Source: a virus
Lineage: Duplodnaviria; Caudoviricetes
Strand: one strand, 5' to 3'
DNA length: 59,803 nucleotides
IMG/VR virus record: IMGVR_UViG_3300008261_000020
Span: 1-59,803 of that record
Shown here: positions 52,640 through 56,348 of the stretch, one piece after another
How the letters are laid out: each line of letters begins with the position of its first letter
How positions within the stretch are numbered: position 1 is the stretch's first letter
The notes under the pieces: generated by a model
What the model was told of the DNA's origin: nothing
Database searches by the model: none
Seen by the model: the letters and a program-made list of their open reading frames with translations, nothing else
Translations under genes and position numbers: made by a program

Positions 52640-52663
52640 GGTGGTGTCTTCAAAGACACCGCC
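52640..52663. repeat. Hairpin containing the palindrome GTGTCTTCAAAGACAC (52644-52659)
   Basis: GGTGGTGTCTT-CA-AAGACACCGCC directly 5' of hammerhead 1. Confidence 0.9.
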
Positions 52664-52714
52664 TCCGTCCGAGAGTGATTACTCTCGCTGATGAGTCCAA
52701 TAGGACGAAACGGA
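52664..52714 (+). ncRNA. Hammerhead ribozyme, type III (HH1)
   Basis: UCCG-UC^; stem I CGAGAGU-GAUU-ACUCUCG; CUGAUGA; stem II GUCC-AAUA-GGAC; GAAA-CGGA; predicted cut after 52669. Confidence 0.95.
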
Positions 52715-52734
52715 AACCAAAAAAATCTAATCAA

Positions 52735-53622
52735 ATGGAATTTAAAATGCATGGAGCAGGACCAAACAGATGGAATGACATCGTTTCACGTGGTGTGGTT
52801 CAAGGATACCACGACAAGCCTCACCCGATTGATATTTCGGGCGGAGCGAAAGCCTCAGACATTGCAAACCTCAAGAAAGCACAAAGGGGTAACCTTATTG
52901 AGTCTTTCGGTGACTATCGTTCAAGGTTTACCATCGGGTTTGAGGTGGAGAAAAACTCCCTTCATCGTGGAGCGGTGAGAGAGTACGAGCTACTTTGTGG
53001 GTTTGAGCGTGATGGGTCTTGCGGTTACGAAGCGGTTACCCACGTGTTACCCCTTGTTCCTAACTCTCAGTGGAGAACTGCCGTATTCGATATGATGTTC
53101 AAGGCTGAGAAAATTATTTCAGACAATTATAGCCCTTCAAATTCTCAGTGCGGTGGTCACTCAAACATCGGGGTTGAGGGGTTGACGGGTGATGAACTGA
53201 GGGTCCTTATTCGCTCTTACTCGGGCATTGTTATGGCACTCTTTCGCAATAGGTTGAAAAACTCTTTCTGCCGTCACAATTTACGTATGCAGGGGGGCAC
53301 TGAGACGGGCATTTATAACGGGTGGCACTCAAAGTATCAGATGTGTTTGGTAAAGAGCAACATCGTTGAATTTAGGGTGGTGGCTAAGTTTGAATCTGTT
53401 AAGCAGATGATGAGAAGGTACGAATTGTTCTATGAATTGGTGGACTATTCGTTGAACGTGAAGGGGTCGCATAGTGCCTTCCTTAAGCGTATCACCCCCA
53501 TCATCACCTCGATGTACAACGGGGACACTGACAAGGTGAACAAGGTATTAGGGTACGCTAAGCACTTTCAAAAGTTCATCAACGACGGGTCAATCCATCC
53601 CGACATCCGACAATATCTTTAG
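52735..53622 (+). CDS. Amidoligase (COOH-NH2 ligase)-like protein
   Basis: FTIGFEVE, ERDGS, GYEAVT, CGGHSN, VEFR; start moved to the ATG after a TAATCAA leader. Confidence 0.7.
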   Translation: MEFKMHGAGPNRWNDIVSRGVVQGYHDKPHPIDISGGAKASDIANLKKAQRGNLIESFGDYRSRFTIGFEVEKNSLHRGAVREYELLCGFERDGSCGYEAVTHVLPLVPNSQWRTAVFDMMFKAEKIISDNYSPSNSQCGGHSNIGVEGLTGDELRVLIRSYSGIVMALFRNRLKNSFCRHNLRMQGGTETGIYNGWHSKYQMCLVKSNIVEFRVVAKFESVKQMMRRYELFYELVDYSLNVKGSHSAFLKRITPIITSMYNGDTDKVNKVLGYAKHFQKFINDGSIHPDIRQYL

Positions 53623-53630
53623 AGTGCGAA

Positions 53631-53681
53631 GGGGGTGTCCTTCGGGTGCGTGTCTTTAAAGACACCGCCCCGACACTCCCC
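53631..53681. repeat. Long GC hairpin capped by the palindrome GTGTCTTTAAAGACAC (53650-53665)
   Basis: GGGGGTGTC...GACACTCCC outer stem; directly 5' of hammerhead 2. Confidence 0.85.
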
Positions 53682-53730
53682 CCGTCTCAGCGTGTGTACG
53701 CTGACTGATGAGCTCAAAAGAGCGAAACGG
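53682..53730 (+). ncRNA. Hammerhead ribozyme, type III (HH2)
   Basis: CCG-UC^; stem I UCAGCGU-GUGU-ACGCUGA; CUGAUGA; stem II GCUC-AAAA-GAGC; GAAA-CGG; predicted cut after 53686. Confidence 0.95.
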
Positions 53731-53789
53731 AAATAGCCACGCGAAGCGTGTCTATCCCCCATCGGAATCACACTTTAAACCAAACCACT

Positions 53790-53876
53790 ATGTTGTTAGC
53801 AATCTTTCTCTTGTCTGTTATCGTATCATTTTTTTTAACCAACGAAATCTTACCTAAAAAAAGCAAACTACTATGA
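53790..53876 (+). CDS. Small membrane peptide (28 aa)
   Basis: MLLAIFLLSVIVSFFLTNEILPKKSKLL; ATGA overlap with the next ORF. Confidence 0.45.
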   Translation: MLLAIFLLSVIVSFFLTNEILPKKSKLL

Positions 53877-54028
53877 AACAATCAAATTCACTGAACGTCC
53901 TTTACTTAGTCATCATCCTTTGTATGTTCATCTTTGGGCTCACCTTGACCTCTTGCGGTACGCAAGGGTACGGGTGCAAGGGGAACCAATCTTGGAACAC
54001 TATGGTAAAGCGAATCAACCGAGGTTAA
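53873..54028 (+). CDS. Small lipoprotein (51 aa)
   Basis: MKQ + hydrophobic helix + LTSC lipobox; stop codon lies in HH3 stem I. Confidence 0.65.
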   Translation: MKQSNSLNVLYLVIILCMFIFGLTLTSCGTQGYGCKGNQSWNTMVKRINRG

Positions 54029-54077
54029 CTGACGAGTCTTGAGTAGACGAATCGGGGGCATTGCCCCCGACTTAACC
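54023..54077 (+). ncRNA. Hammerhead ribozyme, type I core variant (HH3)
   Basis: Stem I GGUUAA/UUAACC; CUGACGA; stem II GUCU-UGAGU-AGAC; GAA-U; stem III CGGGGGC/GCCCCCG; A-C^; predicted cut after 54071. Confidence 0.85.
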
Positions 54078-54090
54078 AAACCAAATTACA

Positions 54091-54288
54091 ATGACGCTAA
54101 AAAAATCGTACGCTTTTGACTATGACAAATCACTTGTTGAGTTCTTGAATCAGAAGGGAATCAAGACCATCACCGGTGACGCTGACATCACGCTGATTGA
54201 ACTTGAGGTATTGGGCGGGTACAACGATACCCCGTTCATTGACCTCATCCTTGAGTTCAGTGCGTGGCTGAGGCACAATCAAGGTTAA
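54091..54288 (+). CDS. Hypothetical protein flanked by HH3 and HH4
   Basis: 65-aa ORF; stop codon lies in HH4 stem I. Confidence 0.7.
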   Translation: MTLKKSYAFDYDKSLVEFLNQKGIKTITGDADITLIELEVLGGYNDTPFIDLILEFSAWLRHNQG

Positions 54289-54334
54289 CTGATGAGTCTT
54301 GAATAGACGAATCCCCCTTCGGGGGGACTTAACC
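54283..54334 (+). ncRNA. Hammerhead ribozyme, type I core variant (HH4)
   Basis: Stem I GGUUAA/UUAACC; CUGAUGA; stem II GUCU-UGAAU-AGAC; GAA-U; stem III CCCCC-UUCG-GGGGG; A-C^; predicted cut after 54328. Confidence 0.85.
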
Positions 54335-54347
54335 AAATCAAATCACA

Positions 54348-54503
54348 ATGGAATCAAGCTACCTATTCAAAATCTATTACGACAAAAGGTTCGTCTGTCT
54401 GATGGTTGCCCACACTAAATGGGAAGCAGTTGACAGAGCGTACTTTAAGTACCTCTATTTGAATCCGAATCTGAATCGTAGCAGGTTCAGTGCCAAAAAA
54501 TAA
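54348..54503 (+). CDS. Hypothetical protein (MESSYLFKIYYD...)
   Basis: 51-aa ORF read by hand, with an AAATCAAATCACA leader. Confidence 0.65.
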   Translation: MESSYLFKIYYDKRFVCLMVAHTKWEAVDRAYFKYLYLNPNLNRSRFSAKK

Positions 54504-54504
54504 A

Positions 54505-54536
54505 TTTGGCGATGTCGAATTAATGTCGTACCTTTG
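54505..54536 (+). promoter_or_regulatory. Bacteroidota promoter
   Basis: TTTG-N20-TACCTTTG, full consensus. Confidence 0.8.
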
Positions 54537-54564
54537 TTTAAATTTAGTTCATTAATCGGGTTCT

Positions 54565-54580
54565 GTGTCTTCAAAGACAC
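54565..54580. repeat. Dispersed palindrome GTGTCTTCAAAGACAC
   Basis: Lies in the leader between the promoter and the GATase start. Confidence 0.9.
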
Positions 54581-54603
54581 TACCCACAAATCAAATCAAG
54601 CCT

Positions 54604-55707
54604 ATGTGCGTAATCATTATCAAACAGAAGGGGAAACTGCTACCCAAGGAGGTCGCCAAGACCTCGGGCAGAATCAATCCACACGGGTTGGGAATTATAT
54701 GGTTGGATACCTTTGAGGTTGCCTACCATAAGTCGTCTGAGTACAAGGTATTGGACACAGAGCGTCCGTTCATTGCACACTTTCGTTATGCCACCATTGG
54801 TGCGGTAAACAAGGAGAATACTCATCCGTTCAGATGCGGTGCGAATCGCAACGAATGGCTGATGATGAACGGGACCATCGCTAAGTTGGGTGATGCCAAG
54901 AAGAGTGACTCAAGGGTTCTTGCTGAATCGTTGGGTGACATACCACGTCACACGTGGAAGAAGGAGTTGGAGAAGTACGATAGCAGGTTCGTGACAATCA
55001 ACACACGTAACCGCACGTATCAGATATACAACAGAGAGTTGTGGACACAGAGGGATGGGATATGGTATAGCAAGAACAATGTACTTGAGGATAATTTGGT
55101 TGCCGTGTATGGCACACTGAAGAAGGGGTATAGCAATTACAATCGGTTCCTAACCTCATCCAAGCACGTTGGCAAGGGACACACCGAGGACAAGTACCCG
55201 CTTATCATCAAGGGTTTACCCTACCTTCTTGAGATGAAAGGTATCGGGCACAATGTTGAGGTTGACGTGTTCAAGGTGAGTGATGTTGTGGTGAAGGAGT
55301 TGGACGCACTTGAAGGTCATCCCTTTTGGTATTGCAGAAAGCAGATACCTATCAAGATGAAAGATGGGAGGGTTCTTACGTGTTGGATATACTTTAATCT
55401 TGCCGAGAAGTACAAGGGCGAAGAGGTCCACGAGACATACACTCAGACGTTTAGCTTCATAAGTGAAGCTAAGAGTAAGAAGTGGTGGGAAGAGGATGCT
55501 GAGGAAGTATTGGAGGCTGAGCGTATAATTGGTAAGCAGTTATACCTTGACGAGTTCATTGACGATGATGAGTTCGATGTGAAGAATGAGAAGCCCGTCT
55601 GTATAAATTGTTTTCACGACCTTGAGTTCGATGGGTTCAGTAACTTTCATTGCAGTGGGTGTAATGATTGGTTCTCAGAGAACGAGGTTCTAAAGTATAG
55701 TGCATAG
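54604..55707 (+). CDS. Class II glutamine amidotransferase fused to a gamma-glutamylcyclotransferase (AIG2-like) domain and a C-terminal zinc finger
   Basis: N-terminal MC, NPHGLG, HFRYAT, NTHPF, NG, SDS; VAVYGTLK, LDALEGHP; CINC...CSGC. Confidence 0.85.
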   Translation: MCVIIIKQKGKLLPKEVAKTSGRINPHGLGIIWLDTFEVAYHKSSEYKVLDTERPFIAHFRYATIGAVNKENTHPFRCGANRNEWLMMNGTIAKLGDAKKSDSRVLAESLGDIPRHTWKKELEKYDSRFVTINTRNRTYQIYNRELWTQRDGIWYSKNNVLEDNLVAVYGTLKKGYSNYNRFLTSSKHVGKGHTEDKYPLIIKGLPYLLEMKGIGHNVEVDVFKVSDVVVKELDALEGHPFWYCRKQIPIKMKDGRVLTCWIYFNLAEKYKGEEVHETYTQTFSFISEAKSKKWWEEDAEEVLEAERIIGKQLYLDEFIDDDEFDVKNEKPVCINCFHDLEFDGFSNFHCSGCNDWFSENEVLKYSA

Positions 55708-56281: not shown

Positions 56282-56329
56282 TCCTCAGACTGCGATGGTC
56301 TCAGTTCGGGTTCGACTCCCGATGCAGTC
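56272..56329 (+). ncRNA. Hairpin plus tRNA-elbow-like element B
   Basis: UGAGGA-GUAA-UCCUCA; closing stem GACUGC/GCAGUC; AUGGUCU; T-arm UCGGG-UUCGACU-CCCGA. Confidence 0.6.
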
Positions 56330-56348
56330 CTCATCAAATCAAATCAAA

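Follow-up and report, generated by a model that had tools for sequence, protein, structure and literature searches.

The window analysed here, meaning the whole stretch of 59,803 bases, is a virus record with a completeness estimate of 99% that belongs to a freshwater phage, and its right-hand block of plus-strand genes holds four hammerheads, HH1 to HH4. The last two, which together with the 65-aa open reading frame (ORF) between them make up positions 54023-54334, carry an inverted base pair where stem III joins the catalytic core. The features of this region are listed below, each followed by its basis.

52662-52716, plus strand: HH1, a canonical type III hammerhead (GAAAC...GTC); RF00008 at 47.9 bits (gathering threshold 48.5), fold, descriptor
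53679-53733, plus strand: HH2, a canonical type III hammerhead with consensus core; RF00008 at 40.7 bits (gathering threshold 48.5), descriptor
53873-54028, plus strand: ORF of 51 aa with a lipoprotein-like signal (by eye); ORF list, conserved in the related contig L106
54023-54077, plus strand: HH3, a type I hammerhead with the swapped pair; sequence, minimum free energy (MFE) fold, descriptor, model R1, other contigs
54072-54090, plus strand: 19-nt A/C-rich leader after the predicted HH3 cut, up to the ATG of the 65-aa ORF; sequence
54091-54288, plus strand: ORF of 65 aa between HH3 and HH4; ORF list, other genes being found here in L106 and in the related contig L315
54283-54334, plus strand: HH4, a type I hammerhead with the swapped pair; sequence, MFE fold, descriptor, model R1, X9 contig
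54329-54347, plus strand: 19-nt A/C-rich leader after the predicted HH4 cut; leader and ATG letter-identical in L106 (alignment A1)
54348-54503, plus strand: ORF of 51 aa 3′ of HH4; conserved in L106 and L315
54604-55707, window coordinates: protein of 367 aa; Pfam/PHROG

Searches of Pfam and PHROG yielded no family match for the ORF at 53873-54028 or for the 65-aa ORF. Among the hammerhead-flanked genes, only the downstream 367-aa protein has family matches in these databases, namely a class II glutamine amidotransferase-like N-terminus (weak Pfam match) and a gamma-glutamyl cyclotransferase (GGACT) domain. This protein is widespread in the phage group, where it was found at at least 80 loci. 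Coverage of the window by the RNA run X20 was confined to positions 54648-54700. When the 55 nt of HH2 were folded in isolation, the MFE fold was not the junction. Type III copies are abundant in related phages, as 94 of 143 distinct descriptor matches were of this type.

HH3 and HH4 share stem I (GGTTAA/TTAACC) and stem II (GTCT/AGAC), with loop II reading TGAGT in HH3 and TGAAT in HH4. Their core strands, CTGACGA at 54029-54035 and CTGATGA at 54289-54295, agree with the C3-A9 consensus, and G12, A13 and A14 are present as GAA at 54049-54051 and 54309-54311, respectively. In both hammerheads, A15.1-U16.1 is replaced by U15.1-A16.1, formed by T 54052 and A 54070 in HH3 and by T 54312 and A 54327 in HH4, which results in a GAC cleavage triplet; apart from this stem III junction pair, all core bases match the consensus. 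Position 17, which must not be G, is C at both sites (54071 and 54328), and cleavage is most likely to take place directly behind it, at 54071/54072 in HH3 and 54328/54329 in HH4. Stem III of HH3 is a 7-bp G/C helix with a 3-nt loop, whereas HH4 has the unrelated stem III CCCCCTTCGGGGGG. For both sequences the three-way junction is the MFE fold (-21.6 kcal/mol for HH3 and -17.5 kcal/mol for HH4), and only 1 of 200 and 7 of 200 shuffled sequences, respectively, folded equally well. Type I topology, with stem I open and stems II and III capped, is seen in the MFE folds and in the R1 alignment.

A preliminary description of this DNA had read both sites as GAA-U...A-C, had proposed a natural core variant kept in two copies with differing stem III, and had pointed to a UGARU loop II in each. 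The GAA-U...A-C reading is exact at both sites and the two copies do differ in stem III as claimed. The variant is a natural one, and in the related phage L315 each copy is matched by a sequence carrying the swap. The UGARU loop is likewise present in both, yet canonical relatives commonly have this loop too, so that it is not specific to the variant. Since neither HH3 nor HH4 contains the A15.1-U16.1 pair (NUH triplet) of the hammerhead class, both are filed as a published rare core variant of this class and not as consensus members.

A covariance model, R1, was built from an alignment (A2) of 60 canonical type I hammerheads from other phage contigs. It aligned with both sequences over its full length (positions 1-53 of 53), scoring 58.3 bits for HH3 (E 3.6e-15) and 65.0 bits for HH4 (E 2.8e-17), so that both matches lie far beyond chance. 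Canonical type I relatives scored between 50.5 and 71.1 bits, the 71.1-bit sequence being a seed of the model. HH3 and HH4 can accordingly be assigned, on the strength of these scores, to the phage type I subfamily that has GGTTAA/TTAACC as stem I. The swapped pairs were also recovered in contigs from public runs of other studies: the X4 contig matches 53790-54310 with one difference at 54156 and the X7 contig matches 53859-54089 without any difference, both spanning HH3, and the X9 contig matches 54254-54459 without any difference and spans HH4. Because the same letters are found in contigs of three other studies, both swapped pairs are confirmed apart from the assembly of the window. A sequencing or assembly artefact or a chance look-alike can thus be dismissed with near certainty, being refuted by these identical letters, by R1 E-values of 1e-15 to 1e-17 and by the fact that both sides of the pair are altered, in two copies. 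Apparent joints of 54051 to 54282 in X4 and of 53733 to 54565 in X7 were given no weight, as the contigs behind them belong to other phages with the hammerhead core in common.

Hammerhead descriptors generally treat A15.1-U16.1 as essential, and matches without this pair are usually discarded. The suggestion that standard searches could miss the variant was supported insofar as an Rfam search of the whole window at gathering thresholds yielded no hits and, at E<=10, gave no hammerhead match for HH3 and only RF03152 with 21.5 bits for HH4. The swap, however, is not the cause, since the canonical type I hammerheads of L106 and L315 escape Rfam as well (best score 17.5 bits, RF02275), and the family-specific R1 finds both HH3 and HH4 easily. 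It is therefore this phage subfamily that Rfam covers insufficiently. In searches for phage ribozymes, either orientation of the 15.1-16.1 pair should be permitted.

Several searches were directed at the frequency of the swap. A pattern consisting of stem II and loop II with position 15.1 left free matched 31 loci in IMG/VR, many of them with the same stem I, and in all 31 an A followed GAA, with U in 0 of 31. When matched patterns were tied to the stem I motif TTAA, IMG/VR contained one locus with the swap (L186, described below) versus at least 120 canonical ones. A loose descriptor applied to 139 loci (59 + 80) of related phages of about 60 kb, which had been found via two neighbouring proteins, gave 143 distinct candidates, 135 of them canonical (types I and III), and no convincing U-A hammerhead was found at these relatives' loci. 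The other eight candidates, which lack an A-U pair, have a stem II of 2 bp and were judged to be chance matches; several of them lie inside the coding sequence of a homologue of the 220-aa protein. Running R1 on the window, L315, L186 and the 80 listed loci L106-L185 resulted in 32 matches, 28 of which were distinct. In the alignment of these 28 rows (A3), 23 have A-U at 15.1-16.1 and five have U-A, the latter being contributed by the window (two), L315 (two) and L186 (one), while all 26 type I matches in the 80 listed loci L106-L185 are A-U. All 15 pairs of A3 covary or are invariant (covariation in 13 of 15), and 99.8% of the cells are paired. A stricter descriptor run on 313 loci, a set biased by how the loci were fetched, yielded 209 type I A-U, 96 type III A-U and five type I U-A hammerheads; six further rows that were neither A-U nor U-A turned out to be mis-registered canonical hammerheads or chance matches.

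Other candidates from these scans were rejected. An IMG/VR pattern with free stem II followed by GAAT matched eight loci without a hammerhead recognizable by eye, as seven have no paired stem II and one (L036) has a stem II but no stem I that could be found. The corresponding type III swap pattern matched a single locus (L320), which by eye has no stem I or II. Among genome contigs, the swap pattern matched four loci, none of which folds as a hammerhead, and a blastn search of positions 54015-54350 against a collection of cultured phages gave no match. In the metagenome scan, three of 11 swap loci have a hammerhead fold (L314, L315 and L306, the last of which is contig L186 again) and eight do not. 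Within the loci examined, the swap is thus rare, with carriers in three phage lineages only.

The first of the other two lineages is represented by L314 and L315, overlapping contigs of one phage that are 99.9% identical to each other and whose flanking DNA is 68-78% identical to the window. L315 contains four hammerheads: one canonical type III, one canonical type I and two swap variants. One of the variants (L315:1406-1457) has the stem III of HH4 and differs from HH4 at four of 52 positions, namely by a compensatory pair in stem I, one base of loop II and an exchange of C17 for A17. The other (L315:2664-2718) has the stem III of HH3 and differs from it at three of 55 positions, by a compensatory pair in stem II and one base of loop III. 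So few changes are unlikely given a divergence of 22% (binomial P 0.006 for HH4 and 0.0008 for HH3), and all of them fall where a working hammerhead tolerates them: in a compensatory pair, in a loop or at the free position 17. This argues that both paralogues already had the U-A pair before the phages of the window and L315 split and that they have been constrained since. Hence, as judged from one pairwise comparison, the swap appears to be conserved in both paralogues of one sub-lineage. The preliminary description had named lack of conservation of the swap in homologues as a reason to abandon its proposal; most homologues, including those at both positions of L106, indeed do not share it, but the L314/L315 sub-lineage does.

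The second lineage is that of L186, a 10.9-kb contig of an unrelated phage that has one distant protein match, elsewhere on the contig. Its hammerhead (L186:7707-7764) is of type I, with U15.1-A16.1, a GAC triplet and an R1 score of 49.9 bits; stem I is that of HH3 and HH4, whereas stems II and III are different.

With respect to the flanking genes, the swap paralogues have traded places between the window and L315, and the genes enclosed by successive hammerheads are not the same in the window (53600-54620), L106 (L106:2470-4020) and L315. Hammerhead-bounded cassettes evidently shuffle, as follows from these exchanged positions and differing genes. Unlike the genes between them, the hammerhead flanks and the downstream leaders are nearly identical among related phages, and the hammerheads may serve as joints for cassette exchange. 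This last point bears on the notion that HH3 and HH4 do not cleave at all and are kept as structured intergenic RNA, either as 3′-end hairpins or as recombination joints between cassettes: the cassettes vary among relatives and common flanks could serve recombination. Moreover, A15.1-U16.1 is described as the most conserved pair of the hammerhead class, and its loss breaks the contact between A15.1 and G5, according to a report on natural hammerheads (Perreault et al., 2011; PLoS Comput Biol, PMC3088659). Nevertheless, 11 of 11 other conserved core bases are intact in the five variant sequences from three phages, although a relic freed from catalytic constraint should lose unpaired core bases as well, and no substitution between orthologues lies outside compensatory pairs, loops and the free position 17. 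As the natural U-A variant of that report was also found to cleave (PMC3088659), we regard a complete loss of activity as quite improbable.

A canonical counterpart is offered by L106, which is one contig with L048 and, among the matches listed, the nearest relative of the window. It is syntenic with the window (alignment A1), the identity being 88% for the 367-aa protein downstream and 65% for the 295-aa protein upstream. At the position of HH3, following the conserved small lipoprotein-like gene, L106 has a canonical type I hammerhead (L106:2838-2889), whose stem III is identical to that of HH4, and at the position of HH4, preceding the conserved 51-aa gene, it has another one (L106:3667-3735). 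HH4 and L106:2838-2889 differ by six bases, all accounted for by three compensatory exchanges of pairs, of which two fall in stem II and the third is the flip at 15.1-16.1. As only pairs are exchanged, the swap behaves like ordinary helix covariation. With a common stem III and differences only in paired exchanges, the two sequences constitute a natural control, and these near-twins make the cost of the flip directly measurable in a tertiary-stabilised scaffold.

The comparison raises the question of whether the flip is plain drift, with U15.1-A16.1 being about as good as A-U within a tertiary-stabilised scaffold. That the core swap is just one of three compensatory exchanges between HH4 and L106:2838-2889, and that no other core change in HH3 or HH4 compensates for it, would fit such neutrality. 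If it held, however, the flip should be common, yet the A3 alignment has 23 A-U as opposed to five U-A rows, all five from three phages, and the matched patterns found one swap locus as opposed to at least 120 canonical ones. In addition, a loss of activity has been published for this very pair: PMC3088659, with reference to Ruffner (1990) and Kore (1998), puts the activity of canonical ribozymes at 10-fold or more above that of 15.1/16.1 mutants. Neutral drift is therefore considered unlikely. Two further explanations of the swap were rejected. The flip creates GAATC, a GANTC site, but the window shows no depletion or enrichment of GANTC (182 sites versus 200.9 +/- 12.8 in shuffles), which leaves no reason at the level of the DNA. 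Nor can the swap have arisen by inversion of the hairpin of stem III, since a hairpin closed as A...T reads A...T again in its reverse complement.

The layout of the genes suggests a role in transcript processing. The TAA stop of the ORF at 53873-54028 lies inside the 5′ strand of stem I of HH3, and the stop of the 65-aa ORF lies inside the 5′ strand of stem I of HH4. With these stops in stem I, and with the leader and ATG behind HH4 being identical in L106, the layout fits the processing of long transcripts proposed for prophage hammerhead clusters that flank single genes, as described in PMC3088659. In the reading we prefer, to which we assign a probability of roughly 0.7, HH3 and HH4 belong to the phage type I family by descent and would self-cleave after C17, more slowly than their canonical neighbours, and thereby separate mRNAs. 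The junction pair of stem III would have flipped from A15.1-U16.1 to U15.1-A16.1 within this phage type I family. Cleavage after C17 would take place co-transcriptionally, at a rate that is likely to be lower than that of HH1 and HH2, and the four hammerheads together would divide the polycistronic rightward transcript into fragments of one gene each. Every fragment downstream of a cut would carry a 5′-OH, followed by the unstructured 19-nt A/C-rich leader and the ATG, while every fragment upstream of a cut would end just past its stop codon in the stem II and stem III hairpins with a 2′,3′-cyclic phosphate. That HH3 and HH4 cleave, that they do so at a reduced rate and that they take part in mRNA processing is what the sequences make most likely; put more briefly, both are probably active but slower.

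A reduced rate might itself have been selected, an idea that goes back to the tuned kinetics suggested in the preliminary description. The U-A pair would then have been favoured for slow or conditional cleavage that leaves transcripts partly joined and sets the ratio or the timing of the small genes. The persistence of the swap in two paralogues of two diverged phages and its recurrence in the unrelated phage L186 would be in line with this, as would the presence of canonical type III ribozymes in the same operon, which makes differing rates possible within one transcript. Furthermore, slow cleavage has been published for a natural U-A variant, and regulation is suggested there as a possibility for slow variants of phages (PMC3088659). 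On the other hand, canonical ribozymes serve L106 well at these positions, ahead of the same downstream gene, and the swap common to the paralogues may reflect a single origin followed by copying and not repeated selection. Attenuation by selection is thus put forward as a tentative idea, which we consider somewhat unlikely. The more specific claim that a freshwater phage sub-lineage fixed the GAC-cleaving U15.1-A16.1 pair in two paralogues for attenuated or conditional cleavage appears doubtful. If true, this would be the first demonstration that selection retains a “forbidden” hammerhead core pair as a means of tuning the rate.

Two other elements of the window were noted beside the hammerheads. 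The first is a 16-nt palindrome, GTGTCTT[C/T]AAAGACAC, which occurs at 13 sites (26 strand matches versus 0.22 expected):

3658, 14843, 15224, 29450, 36514, 46661, 50260, 51745, 52644, 53650, 54565, 56066 and 59396: palindrome sites of 16 nt each

At most sites, its CAA reading runs along the apparent direction of transcription. HH1 and HH2 each have a copy directly on their 5′ side, another copy precedes the ATG of the 367-aa gene by 24 nt, and in relatives the hairpin of the palindrome forms stem III of canonical type I hammerheads (L106:1506-1565 and L315:1699-1760). The palindrome may represent a hairpin in RNA or a site bound by a protein. The second element is an intergenic tRNA-like minihelix at 56284-56334 on the plus strand, in which an acceptor-like stem of 7 bp stacks on an arm of 5 bp whose loop, TTCGACT, resembles a T-loop. 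The minihelix lies just before an A/C-rich leader and ATG. It has a weak Rfam match to mascRNA-menRNA (21.4 bits), and ARAGORN detected no tRNA at this position. Over 52 nt it is 98% identical in L314, with flanks at about 76%. It might be a processing site for RNase P or RNase Z, with the same role as the hammerheads.

Among known systems, the canonical phage type I hammerheads (L106:2838-2889, L125:810-859 and the A2 seeds) are closest in build. They have stem I and the core in common with HH3 and HH4, likewise possess a 4-bp stem II and a 5-nt loop II, show overlapping R1 scores and are also placed after a stop codon and before an A/C-rich leader. They differ in having A15.1-U16.1 and a GTC or GTA triplet in place of U15.1-A16.1 and GAC. 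GAC triplets are reportedly cut at a few percent of the GUC rate. Kore in 1998, and Kore, Carola and Eckstein in 2000, reportedly observed cleavage 3′ of triplets with A16.1 paired to U15.1, and the NHH rule is said to stem from the former work; the constructs are said to have been minimal and trans-acting, unlike HH3 and HH4. Some resemblance exists to RAGATH-1 (RF03152), a type I hammerhead preceded by a hairpin, since HH4 has a hairpin at 54259-54277. This hairpin, however, is located in coding sequence and has no equivalent before HH3, and membership of HH4 was rejected at 21.5 bits (E 6.8) versus a gathering threshold of 56.3. Phage PaP3 was considered as the published U-A example and ruled out, as its hammerhead reads GAAA.

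The preliminary description had left it unsure whether the variant was already catalogued. This is settled by the report of 2011, in which a natural U15.1-A16.1 hammerhead is described that self-cleaves with low activity, a weakness attributed to the lost A15.1-G5 contact (Perreault et al., 2011; PMC3088659). Since both the variant and its weak activity have been published there, what is known of the hammerhead class as such is unchanged. Like HH3 and HH4, the published variant has a flipped junction pair in an otherwise consensus core, and the variant cores of that report come mostly from phage-like contexts (PMC3088659). While a single U15.1-A16.1 sequence is presented there, the present data comprise two paralogues in one phage, the corresponding two in another and, in a third phage, a near-twin with the canonical pair. 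The flipped pair is thus more than an isolated case: two paralogues retain it in diverged phages while the helices around it covary, and it recurs in an unrelated phage. HH3 and HH4 are therefore new, evolutionarily conserved examples of a known rare core variant.
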